The notes beneath the pieces are model-generated. The model worked only from the letters and a program-made list of their open reading frames with translations. It made no database searches and was not told the origin of the DNA. From assembly GCA_032718475.1 (NCBI GenBank), contig JAUCBJ010003987.1, positions 31,528 through 95,527 of the forward strand: 64,000 nt of DNA, given 5' to 3'. The translations under genes were made by a program, and so were the position numbers. Every line of letters begins with the position of its first letter. Within the stretch, counting starts at the first letter, position 1. The DNA comes from Nemertoderma westbladi (Eukaryota > Animalia > Xenacoelomorpha). Positions 3,408 through 57,204 of this stretch are shown here, in pieces.

Positions 3408-4676
3408 TTAAATGCTGATTTTCATTTCAATTCTTTCTGCAGGATCTACAGCAGTGAACTCCAGCCACCATGGCCCATGCTGCCCGCCAGCACCATATAT
3501 CCCATTCAAATTTGCATGCGAACAACTCTTGTACCACCAAGCGCCTCTGAAATGCACAGCACAGTTATCAAAACCATATTCATCATTGTCCCGATCCTTT
3601 GTGGTAAAGGACTGACCATCTAACCAATCAGGGTGAGAGGGGCCACTTATTAACATAGCATTCCCTGCAGTCCCTTGGTATCCTGCAATTCTTAAAGTAT
3701 AAGTTGTGCTTTCCGAACCAACTCGGAATAAAGAATATTCCGCGAATCCATATTTCCCCCTATACCAGATATCCACTCTCAGTTTAACCCCTCCAGCAGT
3801 AAGATTGTGTATGGTATCCAACCCTAACCAAAATTCGTTGCTAACATCACCGAATCCAGACTTATAATACGCCCACTCCCGATAAAAGTCCATGGCTCCA
3901 TTAATTCTCCTCTGAATCACCAACCATGGACCACCTGGGACCATGGTGTCACATCTGATTAAACCATTTAGGCCATAATCACTACTGTAGATTCTAATTG
4001 TATTATTCAGTTGATAATTGTGACAAAGATTATTTGGAGGAACTCCTAGTGCCATAATTATTGCTTCCTTTTGTTCATCAATCTTACCAATGAATTCATT
4101 TGATTGTTCATTAACTTTCCCATCAAATATGTCACTTAGTTCATTAAGTGTATTTCTCAAGGTTTCAGTATTCGTACTAATGTTATAAGTAAATTCATTT
4201 ATATTTACCTTCACCACATCATGGAATATTTTTGAATGATGAATTAGATTACTATATACTATATCATTGTGGTCTTCGACGTTTGCGTTAAAGTTGCTAG
4301 TTAGATAATCTAGTTGCTCACCTATTGTCTCTTCTTTATCCTTTAGACTGTCAGCAAATTTATCCAACTTCATTATGATTTCTATTTGGTTATTTATCAT
4401 GAAAAAAGAAATCCTTGCCAAGGCAGCCATCACAACTAGTAGTCCAATAAGTGTTATAATTATAATTATCCACTTGCATTTTGTTGGATTTCTCTGAGCA
4501 ATTTTCTCACCCTCAGTTTTGAGTGTTCCTTCACTGATTATCGGATCCGGCACATCATATACGGAATATACGCCTTCTTCAATAACTGATGGCTTTTGTT
4601 TACCCATCAATGTTAACTCATAAACAGGATTAGTCAACTTAACTGCATCATCATTTATTTTTAGAGAAGTTGCCAT
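3408..4676 (-). CDS. FReD-1: type II membrane fibrinogen-related-domain protein (class A, Arg in TM), 422 aa
   Basis: Uninterrupted ORF. Tail has NPVY and YDVP. TM WIIIIITLIGLLVVMAALARISFFMI, then a coiled-coil-like stalk. FReD motifs WLVIQRR, GFGD..EFWLG, FTTKDRDND, NCA, GAWWY..C..ANLNG, EMKI. Confidence 0.93.
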   Translation of the reverse strand: MATSLKINDDAVKLTNPVYELTLMGKQKPSVIEEGVYSVYDVPDPIISEGTLKTEGEKIAQRNPTKCKWIIIIITLIGLLVVMAALARISFFMINNQIEIIMKLDKFADSLKDKEETIGEQLDYLTSNFNANVEDHNDIVYSNLIHHSKIFHDVVKVNINEFTYNISTNTETLRNTLNELSDIFDGKVNEQSNEFIGKIDEQKEAIIMALGVPPNNLCHNYQLNNTIRIYSSDYGLNGLIRCDTMVPGGPWLVIQRRINGAMDFYREWAYYKSGFGDVSNEFWLGLDTIHNLTAGGVKLRVDIWYRGKYGFAEYSLFRVGSESTTYTLRIAGYQGTAGNAMLISGPSHPDWLDGQSFTTKDRDNDEYGFDNCAVHFRGAWWYKSCSHANLNGIYGAGGQHGPWWLEFTAVDPAERIEMKISI

Positions 4677-5160
4677 TTATCTGATGTTATGTTTTTCTCC
4701 AATATATGTGTTTCTAGTACTTGATACACTTAACTACATTCCTATGAACAAGTTTTATTTCAAATTATAGTAATAGTGCTTAATTCAGAAATGATAGATA
4801 TCTAAATTTATGAGGAATGTACTGGTTGTATTGCAGTAGGCCATGGACTGACTGGGGAATAACGCAATTAGTTGGTGATAATATACGTCATTCTTATGCC
4901 AACTGATTACTGCTATTCTGCTGTCAGAAGTAAAGAAGTACTGCCACTGGTAGCTGACTTTTAGATTTCTTCTGGGATACCTTCATTTGCAGTAGACAAG
5001 GAACCAAAATTTAATCAAAAAGTTTAATCATAAAAAAGTAAATACTTACTGGTACTTTAGAGAGCTGCAGGCTATAAAGTTCTTTAATGTTCTTAAATAT
5101 TTTTTCATATTTATTTTTTTCCTTTTATTTTCATATTTAAAATATCTCAACCACCAATTT

Positions 5161-5440
5161 CCCTTTGCTTCAGTTACAGTTTTAATTGATTCAGGGGCTA
5201 ATCTTTCACTAATGAGCAGGGTTTACTTTTATTCAAGCAGTTGTTTTGTGGTCGAATTCCCTTAGCATAACTGAAAAAACAAATTGACTGTAGCTAATTG
5301 GACTAAACATTGGATAATTTGTCACTGCTACCACAGTTCAGGATCAGACACTAAACATGAAACTATCACTGTTAGCATAGCACCAGATCTTGCCATTAAT
5401 TGCCTCATTGGGCAGGATTTCCTGCGCACCTTTTCTGAGA
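5161..5440 (+). pseudogene. Degenerate retropepsin (LTR-retrotransposon aspartic protease) relic
   Basis: Manual translation gives VTVLIDSGANLSLMS, then LTVAN, then IAPDLAINCLIGQDFL. Stops are present and the relic is not in the ORF track. Confidence 0.6.
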
Positions 5441-6629: not shown

Positions 6630-9072
6630 CCCGCCTATACCCGGTTTTGTTTTGCCACATAGACACCCGCTTTGGGTCAATTTGACCCATACCTACAAAA
6701 AACGACTTTGTAGGGGAAATAATCAATTTCCACACTGCCAATATAATTATAGGGTTAAAATATAGTACAAGTGATTGTACAGAGTTATATATCGATTACC
6801 AATATCATGTTATCGATTGTTATCAATATCATGTTATCAATAGTATGTTCGGACTCTAGGTGCAACTAGTGCAATACGTTGATACACGTGAATGTACGTC
6901 GCAGATGAAGTGTGCACAGTTGTCGCATTTTCGTGAATACTTTGTAGACCCAGACTTTTGTGGGCACCTGTAGCATCTCCCACGTTTGGGAACTTTGGGT
7001 GCTGAAACACTGGAGCCCACCAAGGATGTACTGAGCTGCTGCTCTCGCTGGGCTATAGTACGAGGTGCCTCAGCAATATGACGGGATAGGGTACGAGACG
7101 TCATACTGATCTTCATAAGACCCTGAGATACCTCTGTTAGGTAATTGAACCTCGCCCGATTAGTGCGACGGGTTGTTGGGAAGAGAGTGTAATACACCAC
7201 AAACCCGGCAACTGCAGCGACATCAACTACCACCATGAAGACCCGCATGGGCCAGCGGCGGGTGGCCCTGCGTGCTGTGAAATGACCCACCATCGCATCC
7301 ATCACATCAACACCACATTTTTGCGCATTATAATCCAAAATCATGCTGGGTTTGTGGGTCGCCTCGGCTGAAACTTCCTGATCAAAGTGGGACGATGATA
7401 ACATCAGCACACACTTGCTTGCCTTTGGTATATACGAAACCAATGTTGCGTCATTGGTGTGGCCGAACAAACTGGAATGGACTTGTCTTCCCCGTGTGTC
7501 AACGAACTCTTGGGGAACCTCCGGCTTGTTACGCCTGACAGTTCCTAGGTAGCTGAGCCGATGCTGCTTCAGTTCCAATAAAAGTTCCATACTACTAAAG
7601 AAGTTGTCTGCGCAAATGTTTCTATTAGTTCCAAATAAAGGCTGCGCCAAGTCCAGGACCACACGCTTAGACTGTCCCTTTTCTCGTGCTTCATTCGGAA
7701 GCCGGCCGCAATAAACTTGGCCATTGTATGGATAGAATGTCTCAGAGTCATATAGCCACCAGAACTTGATGCCGTACTTCGCTGGCTTTGATGGGATGTA
7801 TTGCCGGAATGGACACCTACCACGGAATGGTGACAGCATCTCGTCCACAGTCACAGTCGGACCTGGTACATAGGACGATCGGAGACGGTTTACAAACATG
7901 TCCCACACTTCCCGGATTGGGGCCAGTTTGTCAGTAGCTCGCCGTTCTACACGAGTCTCTTTGTTGTCAAAGCGAAAGTGGCGCAAAATTTCAACGAAAC
8001 GATTTCGGGACATAGTGGCACTGTAAATGGGCCGGCCATATTCATTGTGGAAGAGTGAACGTACTGGAAGTCGATTGTCTCGATGAACTCCTGCAAAGAT
8101 AAGGATGCCGAGGAAACCATACAGCTCGTCGAGTGTAACGTCAGGGTCAATCGCACTGTTGTTCGTTGCGTCCAAAACGATCATCAACATTTCATGTGAA
8201 ATGAAATTGGTAAATGTGTCCAGTGGGGAAGACATATTCTTATCTCTCACATGTTTGGGAATGGACCGACCCTCACGAATGATATTGATGGATCGAACTT
8301 GAGAAGTTGGAAGACATGGCGTCTTGCTCCACTCAATGTTGCCCCTACGTGATACATATAATGTTGCCCCTTCACCTTCTCCATTGCTCTCCCCGACTCC
8401 TCCGGCATCACTCATCCCGCACTCCTCCACACCATCTCCGGCAGACACATTGCTTCCAGAGTCTTCCACCTCACTCTCACCACCATCCAGTTCATCATTG
8501 TCATCTATTGCATCACTATCAACTCCATCGCTGTCATCCAGGAACTCATCTTGGGACGGAAAAAGGTACCCATAGGCATTCACAGGACGTCTTGTCCGAT
8601 TAGGATAACGATTCGACATACTAAATGATACCTCCGAAATTTGAGATCTCTGAGAGTGTTTATGTTTATCCAGTTACCTTTCAGCCTTTCAACTATATGA
8701 TTAATATCAACATACAATCTCTACCGGTACAGCAGTACACTAAGATTCACTGGAGAAAATTCAAAATTCCCACGTTTTTCAAGTTACCAATGGTACATTT
8801 CCTACTATGTATAAGCGCTTGTATAAGATAAGGAACAGCATTTACACTATTGGGTCAATTTGACCCACTTTGGTAAACCACGTGTACAAGGTGTTTAGAT
8901 GTCTACTGCTAGAACACCATTTCGGTATATGTTATTATATTATAGCTTATGGTTACTAACTAGTAGGGGTAGGATGTCACAAGATATTATGACCATCACG
9001 CCAGCCTGTACTTCACAGCTGGATTTTTAACAACGAGTTGGGCCAATTTGACCCACATCTGGTAACCGCGGG
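6630..9072 (-). mobile_element. Full-length piggyBac DNA transposon (2443 bp)
   Basis: TTAA at 6626-6629 and 9073-9076. Termini CCCGCctaTACC / GGTAaccGCGGG. Palindrome TGGGTCAATTTGACCCA at 6673 and 8851, one-mismatch copy at 9039. Encloses the transposase ORF. Confidence 0.93.
6856..8619 (-). CDS. piggyBac transposase, 587 aa, intact
   Basis: Acidic N-terminus. DDD triad in VTVDEM, CADNFF and GVDVMD. IPSKPAKYGIK motif. C-terminal Cys-rich domain RCYRC..CDNC..IC..H..CTSC. Confidence 0.95.
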   Translation of the reverse strand: MSNRYPNRTRRPVNAYGYLFPSQDEFLDDSDGVDSDAIDDNDELDGGESEVEDSGSNVSAGDGVEECGMSDAGGVGESNGEGEGATLYVSRRGNIEWSKTPCLPTSQVRSINIIREGRSIPKHVRDKNMSSPLDTFTNFISHEMLMIVLDATNNSAIDPDVTLDELYGFLGILIFAGVHRDNRLPVRSLFHNEYGRPIYSATMSRNRFVEILRHFRFDNKETRVERRATDKLAPIREVWDMFVNRLRSSYVPGPTVTVDEMLSPFRGRCPFRQYIPSKPAKYGIKFWWLYDSETFYPYNGQVYCGRLPNEAREKGQSKRVVLDLAQPLFGTNRNICADNFFSSMELLLELKQHRLSYLGTVRRNKPEVPQEFVDTRGRQVHSSLFGHTNDATLVSYIPKASKCVLMLSSSHFDQEVSAEATHKPSMILDYNAQKCGVDVMDAMVGHFTARRATRRWPMRVFMVVVDVAAVAGFVVYYTLFPTTRRTNRARFNYLTEVSQGLMKISMTSRTLSRHIAEAPRTIAQREQQLSTSLVGSSVSAPKVPKRGRCYRCPQKSGSTKYSRKCDNCAHFICDVHSRVSTYCTSCT

Positions 9073-13779: not shown

Positions 13780-16700
13780 GCCAGATATCTAGTACTTGGC
13801 GTTCTTGTAGTGTGAATCCAAGATCTTCACAATTTGTGGCCATCCTCATTGCGTAATCCCATACAATTACATATAGGAAAGGCGCCAATGTGTTACCTTG
13901 CAGTACGCCAGCCAGGATTGAGAATAATTCAAATTCACCATATGATGAGAGTACCTGCGCTTCTGTGTCACATATAACAATCCAATGCCAGCAACAATTA
14001 CTTCTGGTATTCCATAAGCTCTTAGTATTTGCAGCATTTTACCTCTATGGATGGAGTTGAATGCTTTCCTTAAGACCACACATGTGGGGCGAGACACGTA
14101 TGGCGAGCCATCAGCGAACTGATATAATTATACTATGGCCGTTTTTCAAAAGTCTGTGTGTGTGTGTGTGTGTGTCAGTGTGTGTGTCGGAAGCCATAAA
14201 TGTCGGAAGCCATAATCGAAGTTAATATCTTCAGCTAAATTGTATGGTTGAGTCATTTTGAACGGTCTCTCCATGGAAATTAATTGTTTAGCACCATACG
14301 ATTAAAGTTATTTTGCACAGAAATTAGATATCTGGAATCCATGTACCCCATTCTATTATAGTTTTTTATTTTTTCAAGTGATTTGCGTTAATAAATGTAT
14401 TTTTAATTGATTTAAACATAATTAACTTTGTAAATTCATACGCTGATTCCATTCTCCCCCATAGAGCCTAAGGCATGGCAAGGGCAGCCGTGCCCAATAA
14501 TATTTCTTGAAGTTTTACATTAGTAACATTGCAAGCTCAAGTCTTTGACCAAGCCAGTGCCTAGGCTAGTTAGTACACAAGGACATAGTAGTCCAGTAGA
14601 AGGAATAGTGCTCCTTCAATACATCTCAACAGACATCAATTAATTTGCCTGTGCCTACCAACGCGTGCTCCTTAACATAACATATATTCTTGATTTCCAT
14701 CACCTCTCACCACAATTATTATTAGTAATTAAAAGTTTCAATTCGGTTTGTCTTTCCGTTATCTGGTTATTCAGTTATTGCATTATTAATAAATAAATGT
14801 TTTAAAATATATCTTACGAAATATGGTTAATCATTAAAACTTGGCGCTAACATTCTCGCTATGGGGGTTTTAAAGAGTGTTGATTACATTTCTGATGTCA
14901 GTTTTCACGTTTACATAAATCTAGTCTGTCTGTCTGTCGGTCGTTCTGTCAGTCAGTCTGTCAAAACATAAAAGAGAATTCAAATTAACTAACATTCTCG
15001 CTATGGGGGATTTAAGGGGTGCTGATTTCATTTCTGATGTCAGTTTTCAGGTTTACATAAATCTAGTCTGTCTGTTTGTCGGTCTTTCTGCCAGTCAGTC
15101 AGTCTGTCAAAACTTAAAAAAGAATACAAACTAACCAACATTCTCGTTATGGGGGATTTAATGGGTGCTAATTTTATTTGAGATGTCGGTTTTCACGTTT
15201 AAAAAAATCTAGTCTGTCTGGCTGTCGGTCTTTCTGTCAGTCAGTCTGTGAAAACTTAAGAAAGTATACTAACTAACCAACATTCTCGCTATGGGGGTTT
15301 TAAGGGTTGCTGATTTCATTTTTGATGTCAGTTTACACGTTTACATAAATCTAGTCTGTCTGTCTGTCGGTCTTACTGTCAGTCTGTACTACTGTACTGT
15401 GGTTGGCATTACGCCATATACCTAACACTAATAATACAGTCTACAATACAGCCTATCTACAGTACAGAATGGATTTTTTGCCACGAAGAGCAATAAATGT
15501 CATTAATACTATCCACCAGTATACCTTATCCAAGAGCCTTCCAATAAAACATGTATTCCAGCATGACGTCCACTGCACGTCTTCGTGCTGTCCATTGTGA
15601 CGTGCAGTGGACGTCATAGGCTCTAAGGGGTTAAGCAACACGGTCCCTACTTCGCCCTGTCGACACCAAGGCCATTTTTCACCAATCCTTTTTTAGAGTT
15701 TTTTAATTTTTTTGGTATTGGTGAAAGTTCTACAACATTAGTAGATATGTTTTTTATGATAGCTAGTGTTTTTTTGCTAGCTAAGTATTTTTTGAAATTA
15801 TAAAAAATGTGAAAGTCCATGATATTTCAGGTTAAACTGTTGAAGAATATATTAATGACCAAAATAATTTCCAAAAATTACTAGCTAGTAAAAAATACTA
15901 GCTATATATCATAAAAAATCTACTAAGGTTCTAGAACATTCACTAATATAAAAAAGCACTCAAAATCACAAAAAAATAAAGGTTAAAAACTCATTCGGGA
16001 CTCTTTTGCTTAAGCAGTCAAAATTGTAGAAAAAATTCCCGAAGTTTGCGACGTTTGCGAAATTCGCGAAGAATCCGTCAGTTTCTGTGCCCTAATGGTT
16101 TCGTGACGAAACAATAAAATCTTACACACTTAACACACACGAACTAATTTAATGTGTGTACATGAAATCTACGGAATCAATACACAACACACGCACACTA
16201 CTGAATTTAAAAATTTATAAAGATTGCAACTTATATTTGGCTACCTTTTAGGCCTAATGGGTGACTAATTTAATTATTCACCCCTATATATTTGTAGCCT
16301 TTTTAATTTGTGCCTCTAATTGAATCAAACATTAAACTAAAATATATGTCACAATATTGGTCTGTCGGTAGCTGGTCAAAGAATCTCTCATAAATTTGTT
16401 AATTAGTCGCTGCACAGTCATTGAACATTTGAACACGTGCTGCTCGAAGACCCCACAACGTATCAGGATTGCATTGAGATTCTTCGACTTAATTCCTTCA
16501 ATCAGTCTCCGTAGCGCAAGTATCTGAGCTATTGTTGATCTATTTGGTCGAAATCCGTTTTGACTCTTACACACGGTAGTTCTTTATGTGAGGCTTAATT
16601 CTATATTGAATAATTTTGTTGTCACAACAGATCCCACGATAGTTTGTTGGTATACCGAAGTCTCCTTTTCTTGGCTTTAGTTGACTTTTTGTCCAAATTG

Positions 16701-20191: not shown

Positions 20192-21427
20192 TTAAATACT
20201 AATTTTCATTTCAATTTTTTCAGCAGGACCTACAGCAGTGAACTCCTGCCACCAAGGCCCATGAAAATTGACGAAGTCGTTATAAATTCCATTCAAATTT
20301 GCGTGCGAACATTTCTTATACCACCAAGCGCCACTGAAATGCTTGGCGCAGTTCAAATAGTATTTATCGTTGTCTTTATCCTTTGTGGTGAAGGGCTGAC
20401 CATCTAACCAATTATCACCAGTTGGATCACCAGGTAGCAATGCGTCCCCTGCAGTCCCTTGGTATCCTGAGACGCCCAAAATATAATTTGTGCTTTCCGA
20501 ACCAACTTTGAATGAAGAATATTCCGCGAATCTGTATTCCCCCTTATACCAGATATCCACTCTCAGTTTAACCCCTCCAGCAGTAAGATTGTGTATGGTA
20601 TCCAACCCTAACCAAAATTCGTTGCTAACATCACCGAATCCAGACTTATAATACGCCCACTCCCGAAAGAAGTTAACAGCTCCATTAATTCTCCTTTGAA
20701 TCACCAACCATGGGCCACCTGGGAACGTTGTGTCACATCTGATTAACCCATTTAGACCTTGTTGACTATTATAGATGCTAACTGAGTTATTCAGTTGATA
20801 ATTTTGGCAAAGATGATTTGAAAGAAGATATCCTAAAGCAACCAGTATTGAATTCTTTTGCTGAAGAATTCTCTCAGTAATTGTGTTGCTTTGATTATTT
20901 AGCTGACCAGAAAACTTATCAACTTTTTCCACAACACTTTTATTTAATTCCTTAAGTTGTTCATTTTGAATATCAGAGAATAATTTACTTTGCTCACCAA
21001 TGGTACCATTGAATATCGCAATTTGTTCTTGAAGTTTATCAGAATGTATTTCCATTTCCCCATTTAACTTTGCCTTTAGCTCTTTTGTTTTATCATTTAG
21101 TTCAGCTAAATAATTCTTTATATCTTTATTTATATCACTTTCCAAACTGATCACTTCTATATCACTTTGATAACTACCAGATACCATAGCATTAGCAATG
21201 GCGATTTCACCGACCAACACAATTAGTAAACCAGTAAATATAACAGCCATCACCGTCCACAAACACTTGTAATTATTTAGCTTATTTCTTGTATATCTAG
21301 ATGCATATTGATTGTCTTGGATTTTATCTGGAATAACTATGTATAGAGGATTATTATAATCTGAATTATCTTCTTGAAAGTCAATGACACCGCTCTCAGC
21401 TGTTATTGGACTCATATCAGTTTCCAT
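20192..21427 (-). CDS. FReD-2: type II membrane fibrinogen-related-domain protein (class B, Glu in TM), 411 aa
   Basis: Uninterrupted ORF. Tail DYNNPLYIVI. TM LWTVMAVIFTGLLIVLVGEIAIA. Coiled-coil stalk and complete FReD. Confidence 0.93.
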   Translation of the reverse strand: METDMSPITAESGVIDFQEDNSDYNNPLYIVIPDKIQDNQYASRYTRNKLNNYKCLWTVMAVIFTGLLIVLVGEIAIANAMVSGSYQSDIEVISLESDINKDIKNYLAELNDKTKELKAKLNGEMEIHSDKLQEQIAIFNGTIGEQSKLFSDIQNEQLKELNKSVVEKVDKFSGQLNNQSNTITERILQQKNSILVALGYLLSNHLCQNYQLNNSVSIYNSQQGLNGLIRCDTTFPGGPWLVIQRRINGAVNFFREWAYYKSGFGDVSNEFWLGLDTIHNLTAGGVKLRVDIWYKGEYRFAEYSSFKVGSESTNYILGVSGYQGTAGDALLPGDPTGDNWLDGQPFTTKDKDNDKYYLNCAKHFSGAWWYKKCSHANLNGIYNDFVNFHGPWWQEFTAVGPAEKIEMKISI

Positions 21428-21494: not shown

Positions 21495-21735
21495 ATTATA
21501 ATAATTAATAATTTTTAATAATTACAAATTAAATAATAATTAATAATTAAATAATAATTAATAATTAAATAATAATTAATAATTAAATAATAATTAATAA
21601 TTAAATAATAATTAATAATTAAATAATAATTAATAATTAAATAATAATTAATAATTAAATAATAATTAATAATTAAATACTAATTAATAATTAAATAATA
21701 ATTAATAATTAAATATTATAATTAATAATAATAAT
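21495..21735. repeat. Nearly pure A/T 18-bp minisatellite (ATTAAATAATAATTAATA)n
   Basis: About 11 near-perfect units starting about 70 bp upstream of the FReD-2 ATG. Confidence 0.9.
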
Positions 21736-40187: not shown

Positions 40188-40814
40188 ACTGAATCTTATT
40201 GCAGTATTGGGTTTGTAGACTTATATCTAACTACTGAACAATGTCTTCTACTAAAACTCTCGTTTTATAATTAACCCTTCTGATATTGCATACAACAATA
40301 ATTTCTGTTCATCCTCATTCATTTCGCCATAGTTCATCTCGAGTAGCGTAATGTCACATAAAACATATTAACACCCGTAGCTAATGAGTTAATTAATACT
40401 ACCTAATTGTATTAAAACGGGACTTATTTGTATGTAACTATGTATTGAAGTCAGTCTTATCAATTTACGTAATTAAAAGAAAGACATTAGGTTGTGGGAA
40501 ACATAACATAATATCATATCTTGGTTCTTGTTATTGGATCTGTATCATCATTATCATGTCACAACTTGCTCCACCTGTTTCACCTTCCTGTTGGACCCGG
40601 GGGTGAGGGGGGGGGGGGGGTGTAGTTTGGGCTTATAAACAGATGGTGTTGCATAGATCTGATCATCTTCATAATCATATCATCCATAGGCTTCACATTT
40701 TAGGGCGACCGCCACTCAACTCGCATTGCAACAAGGCGGCGTCCTACTTCATCAACATAACTTTGTCAGTTTTTAATTCACATTAAATAAAATGTGCAAT
40801 TATAAGTATATATA

Positions 40815-43177
40815 TTAGGGTGGAGTGAAAAAAATTTTTTTCTTTATTTTTAAGGGAAGCACTATTTTTCTGATGCCAAATCGGTCTAAACTAACTTTGC
40901 AAAAAAAAATTTTTGATTTCGAAAAATTCTAAGCGGGCCTCACGACACTTGAAAATTTCAAATTTTTGAGAAGGCAATGCCAGTTTTGAAAATCCCAGAT
41001 ATTTTGTATTTTTGATAAAAGTTAAGGAAGATGCAAATATTTAATGTCAAATAGGTTGGAAACAAACACAAAATGTGAAATTGTGATTTTCATATAAATC
41101 TACCCCAGCCTCATGGCCTTTAAAATTTTGCAAAATTTGCCAAATTTCACCCTTAAAATACAGCAAACCTACTTCGTAGTCTCTATAGTTGAAATCGATT
41201 TACTGTGGTTTGGAGTTCTTCCTGAGTGAAAACCAAGTCCCCTGATTTGATTACAACTATATTTCAATACTAGAAACCCAGCTTGCTGGCTGTGAATTTA
41301 CCTTTGGATCAAATTCCCAATAAGTATATTATAAACAACAGTAGGTATAGGAAGAAGGATAATTCTAAATTAGGAAAACACTAGTAAAACAGTAAAGCAC
41401 TAGAAAAACAAATGAAAAACACTGTAATGCACCCGGAAAAAGTAAAAATATTGATCAACAGGAAATTTAATACATGTATTACACTGAATTGGTAATCTTA
41501 AATGTACTCCTCGCATAGCACACCATTAAGTAATTTACGTAAAACATAGGGACAACTATAAACTGTCCAGAAAACAGTGAAAAAATGATTGGCATTAAAT
41601 AGCATTAAATTTTACCTAATATGCTGCTAAAAAATAAGTTGAAAGTGTCTAATACTACACAGAAACCATTGTTGCCCGGCAACCAAGGAACAGTAACCAA
41701 TCAGCATGCATTTCAACAGTTTTACTGGTCAGTCGGTAGAGGCACATTAATGGTGTATTCTGGTATTAGTGTATTCCAGTATTCAAGTATTGTTAGTGTT
41801 GGATCTTGTCATCTGCTAAATGTTGAACAGTTAAAGTGCAGATGTTGCGGTATTTAATATTAAGACAGCAAGAGGGCCACAGTTAGGTCCTACGTACAGA
41901 GATACTGCAGTGAAGTGGCATACCAGTGTGGCTAGAAGCGCGGATGCAAGATCTAGAACACATCACACATGATTTTCTAGTCAGTTCGGTTTTCTGGTAT
42001 GACTGGTATCCTTTATAATAAATACCACAACTTCTGCACTTCAACTGCCAACATTTAGCAGATGAATTGATCTAACACTAACAATACTGGAATACACTAT
42101 GTAATACCAGAATACAGCAACACTGGTACTACTGGCTGACCAGTAAAACAAGGATAGTGCTGAACTGCATGCTGATTGATTTCTTCTTTCACCTAGTATT
42201 ATTAGCAGCATATCAAGCAAACAGTTGAGGCGACCCGAAGGCTCCTCTTTCGATAGATGCTACCGAGGGTAGGGGTGGGCGCTACTATTATCCCAAGATT
42301 TGCTCCCAGTTATTTAACTGGTACTCAATTTATCGACCCCAGTGGATGAAAGGCGGCTGAGTGGACCCTGGTGGGGCTGAACCTACAACCAATCGATTGC
42401 AGGCCTGGCGCTCAGCCAATTGAGCTACCCCGCTTTCTAGCGAAATATAGGTAAAATTTCACTGTTGTCCAGAGGGTTTATAGTGTTTTCCCTATGTTTT
42501 ACGGAGATTACTTAACGTGTGCTATGCGAGGAGTACATTTAAGATTACCAATTCAGTGTAATCGATGTATTAAATTTCCTGTTGATCAATAATTGTAATG
42601 TTTTCCGGGTGCTTTACAGTGTTTTTCATATGTTTTTCTAGTGTTTTACTAGTGTTTTCCTAATTTAGAATTATCCTTCTTCCTAGACCTAGGCCTACTG
42701 TTGTTTATAATATACTTATTGGGAATTTGATCCAAAGGCAAATTCACAGCCAGCTAGCTGGGTTTCTAGTATTGAAATATAGTTGTGATCAAATCAGGGG
42801 ACTTGGTTTTCACTCAGGAAGAACTCCAAATCACAGTAAATCGATTTCAACTATACAGACTACGAAGTAGGTTTGCTGTATTTTTAGGGCTAAATTTGGC
42901 AAATTTTGCAAAATTTTAAACGCCATGAGGCTGGGGTAGATTTATATGAAAATCACAATTTCACATTTTGTGTTTGTTTCCAACCTATTTGACATTAAAT
43001 ATTTGCATCTTCCTTAACTTTTATCAAAAATACAAAATATCTAAGAATTTCAAAACTGGCATTGCCTTCCCAAAAATTTGAAATTTTCAAGTGTCGTGAG
43101 GCCCGCTTAGAATTTTTCAAAATCAAAATCATGCTTCCCTTAAAAATAAAGAAAAACTTTTTTTCACTCCACCCTAA
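40815..43177. mobile_element. 2.36-kb foldback (long inverted repeat) element in a TA run
   Basis: TTAGGGTGGAGTGAAAAAA / TTTTTTCACTCCACCCTAA. Arms about 40815-41860 and about 42010-43177 are reverse complements. No coding capacity seen. Confidence 0.92.
42217..42432 (-). mobile_element. tRNA-derived SINE inserted in the right arm of the foldback
   Basis: A box TAGCTCAATTGG and B-like box GGTTCAGCCCC. Central CTCAGCC..TTTCATCC..GGGGTCGATAAA..GAGTACCAG resembles, from memory, the MetaSINE core. Absent from the left arm. Confidence 0.8.
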
Positions 43178-43550
43178 TATATATACTGTAACAATGCTTG
43201 AAGTAAATAAAACAAATAAATGAAATGAAATGAAATGAGACATCCACATCGAGAAGTAAGACAGATCTTGCTAAACGGTTTTCAAATTTTGAATCATCTT
43301 CATAAAAATCTGCTCTAAATGAAACAGAAAAAAAAAAAAAAAATAAATTTGGATGCCTGCACTGCTTCCCTTATACCTAATGGCAGAAATTGAGTTGATG
43401 CCAATAAAAATCACATTTATAGAGTGTAAGTTGAAGCTTTTAATACCTTCCAATACCCAAACAGGCCCAAACGAAGATAGTTTACATCCTTATCACAAAA
43501 AAATAGAGGAACAACACAATTAATGGGTGAATGAGTGGCTTCATATTATT

Positions 43551-44236
43551 ACAGCTTTTGCAAAGTCGGCAATGATGTCCAGATGGGATCGAACTGGTGA
43601 CCTCCGGGTTGGAAGTCTGACGCTCTAACCATTCAGCTAGCGGCTCAGGTAAAAGATAGACCTGGAAATACTATCGGATACCTTGAATGTCCTAATTTAC
43701 CTCCTCATAGCCTCCCTCGTTCATTTAATATACACTGCCCTTTCGTTATAGCGAGTGGTTAAAGACGGCCAAGTATGGTACAGTTGAGCACACTGACAGC
43801 ATATGATGGTATTGACAGATGGGAGGTGATGTAGAGGTAAATTACGGACATTCAAGGTATCAGATAGTATTTCCAGGTTTATCTTTTACCTGAGCCGCTA
43901 GCTGAATGGTTAGACGGTCAGACTTCCAACCCGGAGGTCACCAGTTCGATCCCACCTGGACGTCATTGCCGACTTTGCAAAAGCAAAAAAAAAAGCAAAC
44001 AGTCGGCCGAAGCTGGAGGCGTCAAGAAGGCTCCTCTTTCGATAGCTACTACCCGAGGGTAGGGGTGGGCGCTACTCCTATCCCAAGATTTGCTCCCAGT
44101 TATTTAACTGGTACTCATTTTATCGACCCCAGTGGATGAAAGGCTGAGTGGACCCTGGGCGGGGCTAAACCTATAACCATAGATTGCAGGCCCGGTACTC
44201 AACTAAATGTGCCACCCCGCGTTTTGCAAAAGCTGT
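43551..44236. mobile_element. Palindromic element with a tRNA-like head in each arm
   Basis: Arms 43551 to about 43705 and about 43833-43984 are reverse complements. Each has TAGCTGAATGG, a CTTCCAA loop and AGTTCGATCCC. Confidence 0.8.
43985..44222 (-). mobile_element. tRNA-derived SINE, second copy
   Basis: Similar to 42217-42432. 11-bp TSD TTTGCAAAAGC at 43974 and 44223. Confidence 0.85.
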
Positions 44237-46189
44237 GCACAACAAAAATTATAATAATTAACTGAGAAGCATACATATCATTCAACGGGTACACTTCAAT
44301 AGGTGGTCAAAGCCATATAGGCTTGGACCACCTAAGCGTAACAGTGGAGGTATGGATCAGTTTGAGAGCCAGCAAAAAAAATGAATAAGCTAGCGAATCC
44401 TTTGTTTGGTTGGCTGCTGGGCCCTGTTGCTACCGTGACCTTTCTAGGTTGCAGTACCCTTTATTGTAGGGTGATAATTACTACCGTTATATGGCCGATG
44501 GCTAATAAGGTGATATATTGGTTTTTGGGTTAACGAAGTGCATCATAATAATCCCGTAACACAAATTGTGTGGAAACCTTTACTAAACTTGCTATGCTCA
44601 GTTAATAAAATATTACGACTATAGTGAAAATAAAATTCTACATTATTTACCATGCAATAAATAAGTACAATATTACTCCCCAGTCTGATTTAGGTTTATT
44701 ATTTAATAATAGTCTTACAATAAATTCATCATATTTCAGTTGATATCTTCACCCTATCTGGGAATAAGGAACTTAGGTTTAGCATATAATCAGTGTCTTG
44801 TAAACAGTCTCTACAGTGTCTCGTAAACCTCGTACCCTGTGCCTTTACTAATCTATATAATCCAGTCGCACGATTTAACTTTCATTTATTGTTTTGGTTC
44901 AATGTCACTGTCACTGTAACCTGCTCCTTAACTAACCTGCATAATGTATTAATGTGTTGTAACACCTGTCATTAAAAGGAGATTCCTTTTGTAGATTACC
45001 TTAGGAGATTAACTTAGTAGTTAATGCGGAATTTCATTCTTGAATGAATTTCTACAACAAATCCTTGCTCTTATTTGATATTGGTCACTTGCACTTATTG
45101 GTTTATTGGTGTATATGTTGTCCGCAACATATTGGTAAGATAGTACAGTAGACTAGTTGATATCAAAACATTATACATTGCACGACAAACAAGCATTATT
45201 GTGTTCATGACACTTCCTCTGGTTTCCATACATATCGCTCGACTGGAATATCAAACATCAGGTTCCCTGTCCGAATCAAGAGGTCTACTGTAGTGAGAAG
45301 AAGGGAGGTAGATATTCAACTAGAGGAACACTCAGAAGTTTTGACTCGCCCCACAAACTGAGTTAACCTCTCACAGTGATGTTTTTCTTCACTAATTAGA
45401 ACGACATACCAGTTGGAGATTCTGATAGTAAATTTTTTCTTCATACTTGGATTTACATGCAGACCAGCCATACCGAGTAGTGTACTTCCGAATACTCTAG
45501 TCAGATTGTAGATTAGTTCGGTACACAACAGGAAGACAATAACAGTCAGTTTGGAAAGTCCAAATTTAATTAAATTATTGATTTTGAAGGAAGAAATCGC
45601 AATTTTTTTCGAGGCATAAATATACTTTATTTTGAAATTTTCTTATTTTCTTTAAAAGATCGAATTTTGAATTAACATAATTTTTACATATAATAATAGT
45701 ATTAATTGAGTAATAGATAAACAACCTTTCAGATTAATAGTATTTGAAATGTTGGTTATGTACATTTTTGTAACAAAGTTATTGCAAATTAAGAGTTTAT
45801 GAAGCACCAATGTTAATAATAATAGTTACCATATTCTATCCACAATTGTGAAATTACAGAAGATGTCACAGAACAAAAGATTACAATTGAATTAATATGT
45901 CAATAAAACTACTGTAGACAAAGATATAGTGTAATATATACATACACATACATACATGGTATAAATATACACTTACTAATCAACATACTAAATTCATTAA
46001 TAATTCCAATGTATTTTCTGATAATTAATACTAATTTTTAAGCAGAATATATTTCTAGATTGTTGATTGGATAAATACTTTTCTATACACATTTATGATT
46101 GATTGAGATTGGATATTTTATTTTTGTCTGTATTTTCATGAAATTAAAGACCTTGCTGACCCCACTTCTGCGGACAAAATGGAATGTAG

Positions 46190-47419
46190 TTATTTACTAA
46201 TTTTCATTTCAATTTTATCAGCAGGATCTGTGAAAGTGAACTCCTGCCACCAAGGCCCTTTATTACCAGCCCACTGGCCATAAATCCCGTTGACATTAGC
46301 GTGCGAACAACTCTTATACCACCAGGCACCGCCGAAATGAATAGCACAGTTAGAACCATATTCATCGTTATCTCGATCCTTGGTGGTGAACGGCTGACCA
46401 TCTATCCAATTATCACCAGTGGGGTCACCAGGTAGCAGAGCATCTCCAGCTGTCCCTCGGTATCCAGAGATTCCTATAGTATAATTTGTGTTTTCAGAAC
46501 CAACTCGGAAGGAGGAATATTCCGCAAATCCATATTTCCCATTATACCAGATATCCACTCTCAGTTTAACTCCTCCAGCAGTAAGATTGTGTATGGTATC
46601 CAACCCTAACCAAAATTCGTTGCTAACATCACCGAATCCAGACTTATAATTCGCCCAATCCCGGAAGAATTCAACAGCTCCATTAATTCTCCTTTGAATC
46701 ACCAACCAAGGGCCACCTGGGAACGTTGTGTCACATCTGATTAACCCATTTAGACCTTGTTGACTATTGTAGATACTAACTGAGTTATTCAGTTGATAAT
46801 TGTGGCAAAGGTGATTTGGAAGCAGATATCCTAAAGAAATCAGTATCGAATTCTTTTGCTGAAAAACTTTTTCAGTAATTATGATACTTTGGTTATTTAG
46901 CTGACCAGAAAACATCTCAACTTTCTCACCAACGCTTTTATTTAATTCCTTATTTTGTTCATTTAGAATATCAGAGAATAATTTACTTTGCTCACCAATG
47001 GTACCATTGAATATTGCAGTTTTTTCTTTAAGTTTATCAGAATGTATTTCCATTTCCCCATTTAACTGTGCCTTTAACTCTTTTGTTTTATCATTTAGTT
47101 CAGCTAAATAATTCTTTATATCTTTATTTATATCACTTTCCAAACTGTTCACTTCTATATTACTTTGATAATTACCAGATACCATAGCAATGGCGACTTC
47201 ACCGACTAAAACAATTAGTAAACCAATAAATATAACAGCAATTAGCGCCCACAAACACTTGTAATTATTCAGTTTATCTCTTAAAAATGATGTAGTATTC
47301 CCAGCAGCATATTGATTGTCAGGAATCACTCTGTATAGAGGCTTACTATAATCTGAAGTATCTTCTTGAAAGTCAATGACACAGCTCTCAGCTTTTATTT
47401 GACTCTTGGTAGTTTCCAT
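46190..47419 (-). CDS. FReD-3: type II membrane fibrinogen-related-domain protein (class B), 409 aa
   Basis: Uninterrupted ORF and close paralogue of FReD-2 in tail, TM (LVGEVAIA) and stalk. Complete FReD. Confidence 0.93.
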   Translation of the reverse strand: METTKSQIKAESCVIDFQEDTSDYSKPLYRVIPDNQYAAGNTTSFLRDKLNNYKCLWALIAVIFIGLLIVLVGEVAIAMVSGNYQSNIEVNSLESDINKDIKNYLAELNDKTKELKAQLNGEMEIHSDKLKEKTAIFNGTIGEQSKLFSDILNEQNKELNKSVGEKVEMFSGQLNNQSIIITEKVFQQKNSILISLGYLLPNHLCHNYQLNNSVSIYNSQQGLNGLIRCDTTFPGGPWLVIQRRINGAVEFFRDWANYKSGFGDVSNEFWLGLDTIHNLTAGGVKLRVDIWYNGKYGFAEYSSFRVGSENTNYTIGISGYRGTAGDALLPGDPTGDNWIDGQPFTTKDRDNDEYGSNCAIHFGGAWWYKSCSHANVNGIYGQWAGNKGPWWQEFTFTDPADKIEMKISK

Positions 47420-48029
47420 GGCATAATATTGCTAAACTTTAAACAATGTATGTTCTCTAATTAAACTAAACATTAAACCTAATGATGATGAATGCATCAC
47501 ACAAATTACAGAATGATGTAACTCATTCACTGGGACATTTCTACAATATAATATATTAACTATTCATCGTCCAGTAAATATAATATGCATTATTTATCAC
47601 CTGTCTTGAGATATCTCTCTCATTCGTGTGATCATCAAGCAAATTCAATAAGGATCTACGGAATTGAAGGTAATATATATTCATTACACGTATTTGGGGA
47701 CTTCGTGCAGCACGTAAGTCCAGATGAGCCTTTGCATAGAGGTACAATTAGTGGACCTAGTGGCAAACAGAGGAACTGTAAAAGTCTGTCTGTGGGAAGA
47801 ATTTTTTATCAGCAATACCCGTAGTTTACTCCTACCAAGTTTCTGATGGTTGGTTCTATAATTTCAGCTACTTTTACGTTTCTGACAATTCGCCCCCTAG
47901 CGACAGACAGATGAACTACAGAAGTTTGTATCTCTGTAGAATTTGTAAACTTTTGAGAGACTACATGTATACCAAGTTTGGTACAATTTCATCAAAGATT
48001 GATCGATTTATTAGCATTCAAACATTTCT

Positions 48030-48125: not shown

Positions 48126-48861
48126 TAGGTCAACTAATTATACCACTATGTTAAGGCTCACCTGGACTTACGTGGATCACCCCACATGAAAACTATTGGG
48201 AATTTTTCTTAATTACGAGGAGATATATAATTTTCCGAATGCACTACCACTCTATCAGGTATCCATCAAACAAGTGAAACACAGTCTTAACAACAGAGGC
48301 TCAGCAGCTCTGATCTGAGTACAATCGTTCAAAACTACCTGTATCCAAATGGTGGCTACAATAAAAAAAACCAAAGTATCAAAATTACATCGTAATGCCA
48401 TGGAAATAGCAACTCAAGCAACTACTCGCTGTGAATTTAATTTAATGAACATCAGATAGAAGATCAGTATAACGTAGGCAGTAGGCCGCCAGCAAGGGGC
48501 TATGGGGGGTTACCGGGTTCTGAGAAACAGTAGACCCAGGGTTGGAGTCTGAAACGGCAGAATATGTAGCGGCATAGGCTAGTCTGCTATGCATCACTAC
48601 TACTGGTACCAGCACATTTATCTGGTTATGCAGATAGGCCTGTTGGTGTATGTAGGGGGCAAGGGCAACAGACCTCAGTTACTGGGTTACAAACTAGGTT
48701 ACATGGGATACATACAGGAACAACCAGAAAGCATCTGAAAGCAGCCTATTTGATGAATTTTGGACTTAGTTGATGAATGATATAACCAAAATTGGAATGG
48801 AACAAACCCATTTACAATAACAACAACAAGACCACAATTAAGGGGGTGGTACTATTGGCTT

Positions 48862-50781
48862 GTTACTATTGGCTACTATACAGCTAAGAGGCATATCCCC
48901 CAGAAACCCAAACGAAAACAGTATGTGCCATGGCAAAACTCTGAGGTTGGTTGTAAGAGAGAAGATCTTAAGAAAGCCTACAAGCTAAGGACGATCTTAA
49001 ATTGGCCTACAACATCAGCCAGGAAAAGTACATCCAGGGTAAAATTGAAGCAATTACAACTGCTCACATACAGCAACAATCAAGACTTACCTGGCAAACT
49101 GTAAATGAGGTATCTGGTCGGAAAAGTTGTGCAAAGGGTCGCCTCAAAGCCGATAGTCCTGAAGAACGTGTTGGGAAGTGGAAAAATCACTTCAGCAACT
49201 TGCTTGGGCAGCCTCCAAACATCGAGGTCAGCCCTACAAGGAAAATATATGACAAGACACTACCTATAGAAACAGTGGACTTCACACCTGCCGAACTCCA
49301 AAGAAGCATTAAAAGCATGTCCAATAATAAAGCGAGTGGATTGGATTAAATCCCAGCGGATGTATGGAAAACAGGAGTGCTAAACAGACCATTATTGAAT
49401 GTTTGCAACCGGATGTTAAAAAGGGAAAAGCCACCACCAATTTGAACTAAAGGTCAACTAAAGCCACTCCCCAAGAAAGGAGACCTCGGCATACCAACAA
49501 ACTATCGTGGGATCTGTCTGCTTGTGGTAGCTGCCAAAATATACAATAAAATGATTCTATATAGGATTAGGCCTCACATAGAGAAACTACTGCGTAAGAG
49601 CCAAAACGGATTTCGACCAAGTAGATCAACAATAGCTCAGATACTTGCACTATGGAGACTGATTGAAGGAATTAAGTCAAAGAATCTCCCCGCAGTCATG
49701 ACTTTTGTGGACTTCAAGAAGGCATTCGACTCCATCCATAGAGGTAAAATGCTTGAAATCCTAAGAGCTTATGGAATACCAGAAGTAATTGTTGCTGGCA
49801 TTGGATTGTTATATTGTGACACAGAAGCGCAGGTACTCTCACCAGATGGTGAAACTGAGTTTTTCTCAATCCTGGCTGGGGTACTGCAAGTTGACACATT
49901 AGCACCTTTACTATTTGTAATTGTGCTGGATTACGCAACGAGGACAGCCACAAAGGGTGAAGACCTGGGATTCACACTTCAAGAATGCAGAAGTAGTAGA
50001 TATCCGGCAACTACAGTCACAGACACTGACTTTGCGGATGACATCGCCCTGCTCTCTAATACCCTAGCAGATGCACAGCTTCTACTAAATAAAGTGGAGA
50101 GGGCTGCTAAGGAGGTTGGATTGCATATAAATGCTACCAAGACCGAATTCATGACCTTTAATGTTGATGGAAACTTGACAACCATTGACAATAATCAACT
50201 AAAAAAGGTTGACGACTTCCAGTACCTTGTATCATGGATAGAGAGTAGCAAAAAGGACATAGAAGTTGGGAAAGCAAAGGCATGGGTAGCTCTATCAAAA
50301 ATGGATACCATCTGAAATCAGATCTCTCCAGACACCTGAAGACTAAGTTCTTTCGAGCCACAGTGGAAAGTGTATTTTTATATGGGGGTGAGACCTGGAC
50401 ACTGACTAAATCACTTGAACAACGAATTTATGGTTGCTACACAAGACTACTAAGGGCAGCCCTAAACATCAGCTGGAGACAATACATGACAAACGCCGAG
50501 CTTTATGGTACAATACCACCTGTATCAACCACCCTCCGTGAAAGCAGATTAAGATTCAGTGGGCACTGCTGGCGAAGTAAAGACGAGGTCATACCAGATC
50601 TACTTTTCTGGCAACCAACTCATGGAAAGCGTAGTCATGGACGACCAGCCATAAGATATATAGATAAACTTGAAAGGGATACTGAACTTGGGAGAAATGA
50701 AATTGCGACAACTATGGAGAATCGGGAAGCCTGGATGGATCTCATTTCCACTGTCCGAGTTCGCTCGACCTAGCAGTAGTA
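48862..50781 (+). mobile_element. 5'-truncated RTE LINE with TSD
   Basis: RT motifs QNGFR, VDFKKAFDS, DTLAP and DFADD. C-terminus RLRFSGHCWR. (TAG)n tail. TSD GTACTATTGGCTT at 48849 and 50782. Confidence 0.92.
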
Positions 50782-55800: not shown

Positions 55801-55932
55801 CTTCGGGTAATAACCTGCCTGCACTTATTGCTATCAATTGTAACCTTAGGTTGATAAAATTTAATTGTATGTTAGGTGTAACAAGTACTGGTTTAAATAA
55901 AGCGACAGAAAACATAATATTTTGTGAGAAAA

Positions 55933-57204
55933 ATGGATGCTTCTACCCCAAAAACAAATGATGATGATGCAGTTGAGCTAACCAATCCTGTTTATGAGTT
56001 AACAAGGACGGGTAATGAAAACCCATCAGTTATTGAAGAAGGCGTATATGATGTGCCTGATCCGATAATCAGAAAAAAAACTCTCCAAACCAAGGGTGAT
56101 AAACTTGATCAGAGAAATCCAACGAAATGCCAGTGGATAACTATAATTATAACACTTATTGGACTACTAGTGTTGATGGCTGCGTTGGCAAGGATTTCTT
56201 TTTTCATGGTAAATAATCAAACAGACCAAAGAGAAATCGAAATGAAGATGACGGATTTGGCAGACAACAGGAAAGAAAAAGAAAAGGCAGTAGCTGAGCA
56301 ACTAGATCTTCTAACTAGCAACTTTAATGGAAACATCGAAAACAAAAATGATATACTTAATAATAGTCTAATTGATCACGCCAACATATTCAAAGACGTT
56401 ATTAAGGGAAATGAAAATACATTTAATGATTCTGTTAGTAAGAATACTGAAACGTTGAGAAATAAACTCAATGAACAAAGTGATATATTTGGTGGGAAAG
56501 TAAATGAACAATCAAATGAATTCATTGGTAAGATTGATGAACAAAAGGAAGCAATACTTCTCGCAATAGGAGTTCTTCCAAATAACCTTTGTCCCAGTTT
56601 CCAACTGAATAATACTCTTCACGTATACAATAGTCAACATGGACTAAATGGTTTAATCAGGTGTGACACCATGGTTCCAGGTGGTCCTTGGTTGGTGATT
56701 CAAAAGAGAGCTAATGGAGCTGTTAACTTCTATCGGGATTGGGCAAATTATAAGTCTGGATTCGGTGACGTTAGAGGCGAATTTTGGTTAGGGTTGGATA
56801 CCATACACAATCTTACTGCTGGAGGGGTTAAACTGAGAGTAGATCTATGGTATAATGGGAAATATGGATTTGCGGAATATTCCTCATTCCGAGTTGGTTC
56901 GGAAAGCACACGTTATACTATAGGAGTCTCTGGATACCGAGGGACTGCAGGGGATGCTCTGCTACCTGGTGATCCCACTGACAATAATTGGATAGATGGT
57001 CAGCCCTTCACCACAAAGGATAACGACAACGATGCATTAGATTTTAAAAACTGCGCTGTGCATTTCAATGGTGCATGGTGGTATAAAAGTTGTTCCCACG
57101 CTAATTTGAATGGGATTTACAATGACCCAATGCATGGGCCTTGGTGGAGGGAGTTCACTTCTCTAAATCCTGCAGAGATGATTGAAATGAAAATCACTAT
57201 CTAA
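55933..57204 (+). CDS. FReD-4: type II membrane fibrinogen-related-domain protein (class A), about 423 aa
   Basis: ATG at 55933 aligns with the FReD-1 start (the ORF track begins at an upstream GTG). NPVY, YDVP, TM with ALARISFF, and a complete FReD. Confidence 0.93.
   Translation: MDASTPKTNDDDAVELTNPVYELTRTGNENPSVIEEGVYDVPDPIIRKKTLQTKGDKLDQRNPTKCQWITIIITLIGLLVLMAALARISFFMVNNQTDQREIEMKMTDLADNRKEKEKAVAEQLDLLTSNFNGNIENKNDILNNSLIDHANIFKDVIKGNENTFNDSVSKNTETLRNKLNEQSDIFGGKVNEQSNEFIGKIDEQKEAILLAIGVLPNNLCPSFQLNNTLHVYNSQHGLNGLIRCDTMVPGGPWLVIQKRANGAVNFYRDWANYKSGFGDVRGEFWLGLDTIHNLTAGGVKLRVDLWYNGKYGFAEYSSFRVGSESTRYTIGVSGYRGTAGDALLPGDPTDNNWIDGQPFTTKDNDNDALDFKNCAVHFNGAWWYKSCSHANLNGIYNDPMHGPWWREFTSLNPAEMIEMKITI

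Follow-up and report, generated by a model that had tools for sequence, protein, structure and literature searches.

Two divergent bodies and mosaic heads in a tandem cluster of fibrinogen-related genes with a predicted type II membrane layout in Nemertoderma westbladi

Background

Four neighbouring genes in a 64,000-nt stretch of the Nemertoderma westbladi contig JAUCBJ010003987.1 (hereafter the window, to which all positions refer) encode proteins with a C-terminal fibrinogen-related domain (FReD) and a hydrophobic helix that bears an arginine in two of them (class A) and a glutamate in the other two (class B). Do these opposite charges join two kinds of chain inside the membrane into a paired receptor, as an earlier note on this locus had proposed, or are the two classes related in another way?

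The genes, their domain order, the two classes, a stalk of 11-residue (hendecad) repeats and the mosaic heads can be read directly from the window. What is predicted is a type II orientation, with a helix that continues across the charged residue, a stalk that forms a long helix and a head that binds calcium and has an altered acetyl pocket. We put at about even the chance that these are lineage-specific type II receptors laid out like FIBCD1, with two old bodies, heads exchanged by gene conversion, oligomers formed within a class, and signalling or uptake through class-specific tyrosine motifs.

Results and discussion

Four genes in two classes

A six-frame scan of the window found four unbroken open reading frames (ORFs) of 409-423 amino acids in the gene order A, B, B, A. 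The tail, membrane helix, stalk and FReD that the earlier note had described in all four hold in the ORF scan and in the Pfam matches to the FReD of each protein, the membrane helix being a prediction with which AlphaFold2 (AF2) models of F3 and F4 agree.

3408-4676, minus strand: F1, class A, 422 amino acids in a single ORF (ORF scan); tail 1-68, Cys67, hydrophobic helix 69-93 with Arg88, hendecad stalk about 96-210, FReD about 216-422
4413-4415, minus strand: AGG codon of F1 Arg88
3761-3882, minus strand: F1 head tract of 122 nt, identical to F2 20545-20666
20192-21427, minus strand: F2, class B, 411 amino acids (ORF scan); tail 1-55, Cys55, helix 56-82 with Glu74, stalk about 84-199, FReD about 205-411
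21206-21208, minus strand: GAA codon of F2 Glu74
20545-20666, minus strand: F2 head tract of 122 nt, identical to F1 3761-3882
46190-47419, minus strand: F3, class B, 409 amino acids (ORF scan); tail 1-55, Cys55, helix 56-80 with Glu74, stalk about 82-197, FReD about 203-409
47198-47200, minus strand: GAA codon of F3 Glu74, at which no difference is listed in the contigs of a third class-B paralogue
55933-57204, plus strand: F4, class A, 423 amino acids (ORF scan), opposite in orientation to F1-F3; tail 1-67, Cys66, helix 68-92 with Arg87, stalk about 98-212, FReD about 218-423
56191-56193, plus strand: AGG codon of F4 Arg87

Successive genes are 15.5, 24.8 and 8.5 kb apart and are surrounded by remnants of LINEs and DNA transposons; tblastn found no fifth copy within the window. 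Over the alignable part, protein identity is 70.6 % between the class A pair (F1/F4), 80.2 % between the class B pair (F2/F3) and 54-56 % across classes. All eight indels within class pairs, five of them in the tails, are multiples of three, and the ratio of nonsynonymous to synonymous divergence (dN/dS) within a class is 0.28-0.64 in all five segments; F1-F4 are therefore coding over their entire length. An in-frame TAA stands immediately 5' of the F1 ATG.

Upstream of F2 lies a pure A/T tandem array of 18-nt units (21498-21729, 12.8 copies) that starts about 70 nt from the start codon. The similarity between the F2 and F3 upstream regions stops where this array starts, and the array may disturb F2 expression.

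We compared window positions 45900-47700 with contigs from four public runs, representing three samples and three studies, one of which is possibly the source of the window itself. These contigs carry F1-, F2- and F3-specific letters, together with further head variants unlike all four genes. They also reveal a third class-B gene outside the window, with 46-48 differences relative to F3 in some 310-330 nt, a region in which F2 has 20-22. None of the eight public runs listed for this DNA is of RNA. Paralogue contigs have an even depth in run X1 and an uneven one in runs X2 and X4, which was not used as evidence; nor was the lack of an F2-type contig at the helix region in X2 taken as absence. 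Among the genes beyond the window, one head has a 6-nt insertion in the calcium loop and another is remoter (17 differences in 106 nt).

Two old bodies and heads with a different history

Tails, helices and stalks form two old and very different bodies, and the heads have a different history. In tail, helix and stalk, 186 of the 188 informative sites split the genes by class, as do 11 of 12 at residues 199-236. At residues 237-321 only one of 12 does so, and nine of the 12 join the physical neighbours F1/F2 and F3/F4. For this stretch, likelihood tests reject the class tree at a p-AU (approximately unbiased test) of 0.012, a value that is optimistic because the breakpoints were picked after the sites had been seen. 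Informative sites of the P subdomain are mixed (7/7/4) and its tree does not resolve them; at 69-78 % identity this subdomain indicates that homogenisation of the heads is partial.

Between classes, the stalk has a synonymous divergence of 0.53-0.58 and the head core one of 0.17-0.29. When only identical codons are counted, cross-class synonymous differences range from 15/39 to 17/35 in helix plus stalk, and the head core has 5/68 to 9/65 of them (Fisher p 2e-5 to 7e-3). In comparisons inside a class, on the other hand, the P subdomain has diverged beyond the stalk (16/54 versus 13/97 and 19/61 versus 10/118). Heads of F1 (class A) and F2 (class B) share the 122 nt of complete identity listed above, and a permutation of the longest run over all sites is significant for F1/F2 (0.003), F3/F4 (0.006) and F2/F3 (0.018). 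Taken together, these patterns suggest that heads have likely been exchanged between classes by gene conversion.

An assembly error is an unlikely source of the 122-nt tract because F1-type contigs, compared by hand, end 30 nt inside both tract ends, at about 46572 (X1, X3 and X4) and 46635 (X1) in F3 coordinates. Identity of F1 and F2 over this stretch would give such ends in an assembly graph of what we take to be 31-mers. That the locus consists of processed pseudogenes or of assembly artefacts, with collapsed or chimeric copies, is hardly credible: the ORFs are intronless and lie among LINEs, and polishing errors can yield identical tracts, but four full ORFs with frame-keeping indels and a within-class dN/dS below 1 stand against it, as do public-run contigs that reproduce gene-specific letters of F1, F2 and F3 and end inside the shared tract. 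The combinatorial heads anticipated in the earlier note do arise here, at the DNA level, probably by conversion; mixing through assembly of A with B finds no specific support in the sequences.

A membrane helix with its charge near the outer end

F1-F4 are predicted to be type II membrane proteins because of the tail, the positive-inside charge, the position of the sequons and the predicted structure. Net charge is +2 to +4 N-terminal of the helix and 0 to -3 C-terminal of it, and 19 of 20 N-glycosylation sequons lie C-terminal. On an insertion-energy scale that we re-implemented with approximate parameters, so that depths are approximate too, the hydrophobic segments begin at residue 55-69 and, taken at a length of 23 residues, score -1.6 to -3.5. 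For comparison, nine of 48 homologues have a segment below +0.5, and eight of these nine start by residue 10. The AF2 monomer of F3 has a disordered tail, a helix at 44-80 running through Glu74, a break at 81-86 and long helices to 195; that of F4 has a helix at 63-133 through Arg87.

The motif K-C-x-W precedes the helix in all four proteins, in agreement with the cysteine that the earlier note had placed just before the membrane, and this juxtamembrane cysteine is a candidate for palmitoylation. Counted from the shared tryptophan, Arg88 (F1) and Arg87 (F4) are 19 residues on and Glu74 (F2 and F3) 17 residues on, with 5-8 mostly hydrophobic residues beyond each charge. That the first and fourth genes carry arginine and the second and third glutamate at a similar depth holds true: the weighted mean depth is +6.0 to +6.4 in all four. 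Whether these charges lie inside the membrane depends on the segment length. In the best segments of 24-27 residues the charge is at a normalised depth of about +3.5 to +6 of 9, whereas in segments of 19-21 residues it is at or beyond the membrane edge. By this scale, Arg and Glu sit in the outer third of the helix and not at its centre. This position is still compatible with a function because CD89 uses an arginine at the outer end of its helix, which is functional according to the excerpt available of PMC13107469. The only small-xxx-small motif is at the outer end of the F2 helix.

How well is the charge conserved? Ten of the 21 differences of the third class-B gene over the helix region are listed, evidently ones at some distance from the ends of the alignment. 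The Glu codon has none of these, while the list includes differences at 4 nt on both sides of it; the glutamate therefore appears to be kept. Codons 57-76 of that gene have two replacements (L71V and A76T) and six silent codons. The class charge is thus kept in five of five genes, with Arg in 2/2 of class A and Glu in 3/3 of class B, the third of these apparently. The loss of charge in other paralogues that the earlier note named as a refutation is not apparent in the one further paralogue covered, of class B. Helix residues are 81-90 % conserved overall, and any residue would outlast all three comparisons about 63 % of the time. The charge pattern is real but not yet informative, and is weak evidence for pairing because it represents two lineages rather than four observations and because of this rate of chance retention. 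Given two charges, we infer that opposite signs are roughly a coin toss.

A hendecad stalk

The stalk is a hendecad repeat of about ten units. Its hydrophobic periodicity peaks at 3.66-3.68 residues, with a power of 239-330 compared to 9-59 at 3.5, and exceeds the best of 300 shuffles in all four proteins, in F2 narrowly (286 versus 280), the shuffle null having been sampled on a coarser grid. At the DNA level, self-identity of the stalk is highest at lags of 33 and 66. The coiled coil reported earlier thus survives as a periodic stalk in all four proteins, and its heptad form was rejected, given this period and the little power at 3.5.

From the Met at the helix end to the last core Ile, the stalks measure 113, 113, 113 and 116 residues, and the distance from the charge to the stalk anchor is 118 in F1 (Arg) and F3 (Glu) and 120-121 in F2 and F4. 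Across classes only 19-24 of 100 residues are shared in register (about 20-25 % identity). Stalks of both classes are net acidic (-4 to -12), and we found no complementary charge pattern between the A and B stalks. A crude count of attractive/repulsive charge pairs gives 20-27/26-30 for cross-class and 28-38/28-32 for same-class pairs and may slightly favour the latter. The four cysteines of the head are the only ones of the ectodomain; the stalks have none. A complex prediction for two A and two B chains (helix and stalk of F4 and F3) scored 0.33 against a mark of 0.34, with controls at 0.00 (n = 3); alignments were unused and the job was unlike the calibration, and we count it as evidence in neither direction.

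Tyrosine motifs in the tails

Class A tails (67-68 residues) carry NPVY and YDVP in both F1 and F4. Those of class B (55 residues) carry YNNP, NPLY and YIVI in F2 and YSKP and YRVI in F3, so that YxxP and YxxI are common to the class and NPxY is found in F2 only. We take these motifs to be putative docking sites for PTB, SH2 and AP-2. None of the four tails has an immunoreceptor tyrosine-based inhibitory, switch or activation motif (ITIM, ITSM, ITAM), a YxxM or a dileucine motif. The paired-receptor idea of the earlier note finds support in a sense other than the one meant there, as heads homogenised across two divergent bodies; unlike vertebrate paired receptors, F1-F4 have no ITIM or ITAM.

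The head and its ligand

Pfam Fibrinogen_C matches all four proteins (E 2e-48 to 4e-47; 161-166 bits against a cut-off of 22), and no Ig domain matches F1-F4 at E up to 0.1. The closest solved structures by sequence are ficolin-2 and tenascin-R, with FIBCD1 (E 4e-33) below the ficolins and tenascins. By fold, the F3 model is best matched by tenascin-R (Foldseek E 2.5e-24) and ANGPTL2, with FIBCD1 and ficolin also among its matches. The Asp pair of the calcium site (D348 and D350 in F3 numbering) and the P-domain disulfide (C358 and C371) are present in all four, and the head is predicted to bind calcium.

In FIBCD1 the S1 acetyl pocket consists of Tyr405, His415, Tyr431, Ala432 and Trp443 and is shared with ficolins and tachylectin-5A, according to the portion available of PMC3908420. 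Aligned through vertebrate ficolins, F1-F4 have Phe at 405, Ser at 415, a shortened 431-432 loop and no conserved aromatic near 443. At the second Cys of the P domain, the Cys-His pair reads Cys-Ser-His in all four, where 25 of 48 homologues have His and eight have Ser at the same position, and the loop after it is short and variable. Judging from these residues, the ligand is probably no simple acetyl group. Of the 26 head positions with at least three states among F1-F4, 17 are in the P subdomain (residues 335-402); dN/dS in the head is nevertheless below 1.

Relatives of the family

In a tree of 36 heads, FIBCD1 itself not among them, those of F1-F4 group as a single clade, borne on a long stem (support 100/99), whose inner order the tree does not resolve. 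Four collections were searched for relatives of the N-terminal half and gave none; it was matched by 0 of 594 candidates of 232-741 amino acids and by 0 of 4695 of 112-382 amino acids. A profile search of 1.84 billion representatives returned 38 matches, all to the repeat stalk alone, one of them with a FReD. This one, P0058 (2331 amino acids, low-complexity, with an N-terminal signal-like segment), was rejected as a repeat coincidence. In a metagenome scan, 80 of 112 confirmed stretches were considered; the best segments are 31-67 % identical and 42 of 51 ORFs contain a FReD. Of these 42, 11 have a hydrophobic segment, always within 29 residues of the frame start, a weak background since such ORFs are often exon fragments. 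An atlas search gave FReD clusters only, with a top match of 0.86. The literature searched, which included few subscription papers, describes no tandem two-class family of type II membrane FReD proteins. On the sequence comparisons, F1-F4 are likely a lineage-specific tandem family of FIBCD1-like layout.

Proposed mechanism and competing explanations

We hypothesize that each class oligomerises with its own kind through the stalk, which would display clustered calcium-dependent heads well above the membrane. These heads may cluster on a ligand other than an acetyl group, probably a polymer of microbes or of cell surfaces, and binding would lead to class-specific tyrosine-motif signalling or endocytosis, through NPxY and YDVP in class A and through YxxP and YxxI, with NPxY in F2 only, in class B. 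Gene conversion would shift head segments between bodies. Arg and Glu would each be an outer-leaflet residue that sets helix depth or packing within a class, with no obligate salt bridge between A and B.

Several points weigh against this reading. The longest-run permutation is not significant within the head for synonymous sites alone (p 0.15-1.0), the topology test carries the optimism noted above, and the cross-class stalk alignment has about 25 % identity. Tandem arrays of any kind commonly undergo conversion of a conserved domain, which is no proof of a paired function. In F2 and F3 an AG in frame stands 12 nt 5' of the ATG, so that class B may have a further coding exon upstream. An immune role would follow from family knowledge only. 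Finally, the equal stalk lengths and similar charge depths suit an A-B heteromer equally well, and an A-x-A ends the helix in all four proteins, which fits cleavage.

The heteromer is nonetheless unlikely in our view. It would join A and B chains by an Arg-Glu contact within the membrane and by hendecad stalks in register; the analogy with known modules points to an A.B2 trimer as its likely form, which would combine two tyrosine tails with mixed heads. The charge depth common to both classes, the charge-to-anchor distance of 118 in F1 and F3, stalk lengths matched despite about 20-25 % identity, the Arg or Glu apparently retained in all genes seen of their class, and A and B genes interspersed within a single cluster all agree with it, as do the functional outer-end arginine of CD89 and the binding of two acids by one basic residue in the excerpt of PMC13107469. 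But the two lineages and the coin toss of sign apply here, as does a chance retention of about 0.63. The register differs by 2-3 residues inside each class and AF2 breaks the F3 helix at 81-86; both stalks are acidic, with a cross-class charge count poorer, in crude terms, than the same-class one; there is no stalk Cys for an interchain bond and no Ser/Thr 3-4 residues from Glu; and a matched stalk length would be the ancestral state too. Of the hetero-oligomer proposed in the earlier note, the similar depth, the 113-116-residue stalk and the glutamate apparently kept in a third class-B gene remain. It has no specific sequence support because of the chance retention of about 63 %, the acidic stalks, the separate tyrosine tail of each class and the one-base/two-acid form of known modules. 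An adaptor-free receptor paired by the Arg/Glu charges, likely A.B2, that joins two tyrosine tails and draws its heads from a conversion-shuffled pool is improbable in our estimate.

We give similarly low credence to the view that the helix serves as an extended signal sequence or as a site of shedding, at which signal peptidase or a protease like signal peptide peptidase frees a soluble stalk-FReD lectin, the charge marking the end of the hydrophobic core. The A-x-A, a signal-peptidase type of site, lies just before Arg in class A and 2-4 residues past Gly-Glu in class B; shuffles produce it in 9-17 % of cases per sequence, in a window chosen post hoc. The hydrophobic core before the charge has only 18-19 residues, and the usual invertebrate FReD protein is a signal peptide, a coiled coil and a FReD in the text available of PMC8878817. 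However, the tail of 55-68 residues is kept in frame with conserved tyrosine motifs at a dN/dS of about 0.6, the juxtamembrane Cys is present in all four proteins, and the segments, except that of F2, exceed the N-terminal segments of homologues in hydrophobicity. Moreover, the third class-B gene has Thr at the first Ala of A-x-A, which is tolerated and not kept. A classical paired receptor, in which class A would activate through its Arg and a separate acidic adaptor dimer, class B would oppose it and the shared heads would see the same ligand, is very unlikely. Close linkage, conversion-homogenised heads and divergent tails are the defining genomic pattern of such pairs in the excerpt of PMC13358205, and an Arg near the outer end works in CD89 (PMC13107469, in part). 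Against it stand the absence of ITIM, ITSM and ITAM from all four tails and the longer tail of the Arg class (67-68 versus 55 residues), the reverse of the usual pattern, in which the partner of the ITIM-bearing member combines a short tail with the basic residue. The adaptors known to us are, in addition, vertebrate proteins. A duplication is dated early in vertebrate evolution in the portion seen of PMC13107469.

Compatible both with the same-class architecture that we prefer and with these alternatives is a non-immune ligand, in adhesion, matrix binding, or gamete or self recognition by a protein-binding FReD as in tenascins and angiopoietins, which we regard as a tentative possibility. The altered acetyl pocket, with Ser for His in all four and a shortened FIBCD1 Tyr431/Ala432 loop, and the best fold matches to tenascin-R and ANGPTL2 point that way. 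NPxY and YxxP motifs also serve adhesion signalling. Tandem expansion, conversion and the variability of the P subdomain loops (17/26), on the contrary, resemble recognition families under pressure from pathogens.

Comparison with known systems

FIBCD1 is described as the first membrane-bound FReD protein (PMC6153955, seen in part). As far as that text goes, F1-F4 appear to share its tail with phosphorylation sites, helix, coiled stalk, C-terminal FReD and calcium Asp pair, and by analogy endocytosis is plausible for them too. They differ from FIBCD1 in lacking a polycationic region, their stalks being net acidic, in the hendecad stalk, the single-ORF tandem family and the two classes, and in the altered S1 pocket and the charged residue in the helix; the comparison shows no orthology. 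A homotetramer at the apical surface is a further trait of FIBCD1.

Vertebrate paired receptors such as Siglec-5/14, Siglec-11/16 and PILR are linked genes whose binding domains are kept alike by conversion (PMC13358205, excerpt). F1-F4 resemble them in homogenised binding domains, divergent membrane and cytoplasmic parts and one class with a basic membrane residue, and are unlike them in having FReD heads, type II orientation, no ITIM, a longer tail on the basic class, an acidic second class and stalks that also diverge.

In NKG2C/NKG2D with DAP12/DAP10 and in CD89 with FcR-gamma, one basic residue pairs with two acids on an adaptor dimer, in the part available of PMC13107469. The likeness lies in a single basic residue within a single-pass helix and, with CD89, an outer-end Arg. 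There, as that part describes, the acid pair is on a dedicated adaptor with a Ser/Thr helper, whereas in F2 and F3 the acid belongs to a complete second receptor that bears a head itself. ITAM and YxxM are absent from class B, as is a Ser/Thr at i+3/4 of Glu, and class B thus lacks the DxxxT/S pattern of adaptors.

Invertebrate FReD expansions and snail FREPs form lineage-specific clusters and combine a coiled coil with a FReD, and FREPs diversify by conversion (PMC8878817, PMC12074976 and PMC6321704, each in excerpt). The proteins described in those excerpts are secreted, and FREPs bear Ig domains, of which F1-F4 have none; FREP identity is ruled out on this account.

In F1-F4 the FReD would be put to use in surface receptors that have diversified and carry tails of the signalling type. 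The body/head mosaic repeats, on an unrelated fold, the pattern of genes seen in vertebrate paired receptors. Provided that the animal belongs to the acoelomorph worms, the cluster is a candidate for a recognition system in a group on whose FReD proteins the literature searched gave no account. Should the Arg-Glu heteromer prove true, it would represent a convergent, independent origin of intramembrane charge assembly and of paired-receptor evolution outside vertebrates.

Other elements in the window

Apart from the cluster, the window holds transposons and repeats:

6859-8673, minus strand: open frame of 605 codons for a piggyBac-type transposase (Pfam DDE_Tnp_1_7, E 1e-73) with a C-terminal Cys-rich motif; looks intact
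31832-36908, plus strand: near-complete LINE, with an ORF1-like frame (31832-33082), a Cys-rich PHD-like frame (33601-34146; labelled by eye, no Pfam match) and, after a frame change, a 923-codon endonuclease-reverse transcriptase frame (34140-36908)
37549-38459, minus strand: broken Mutator-like transposase (Pfam Mutator, E 2e-20)
40805-43187, 43554-43984, 57546-59124 and 59161-59602: inverted-repeat elements with arms of 441 nt (96 %), 139 nt (96 %), 112 nt (97 %) and 193 nt (99 %), respectively
14849-15384, 27212-27458, 29361-29703 and 30329-31386: tandem arrays with units of 142, 31, 62 and 208 nt, respectively
451-1894, 23827-25273, 39161-40184 and 48781-50770: decayed LINE fragments, three of them with an RVT_1 match

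The long inverted-repeat elements are likely transposons of the foldback or MITE (miniature inverted-repeat transposable element) type.

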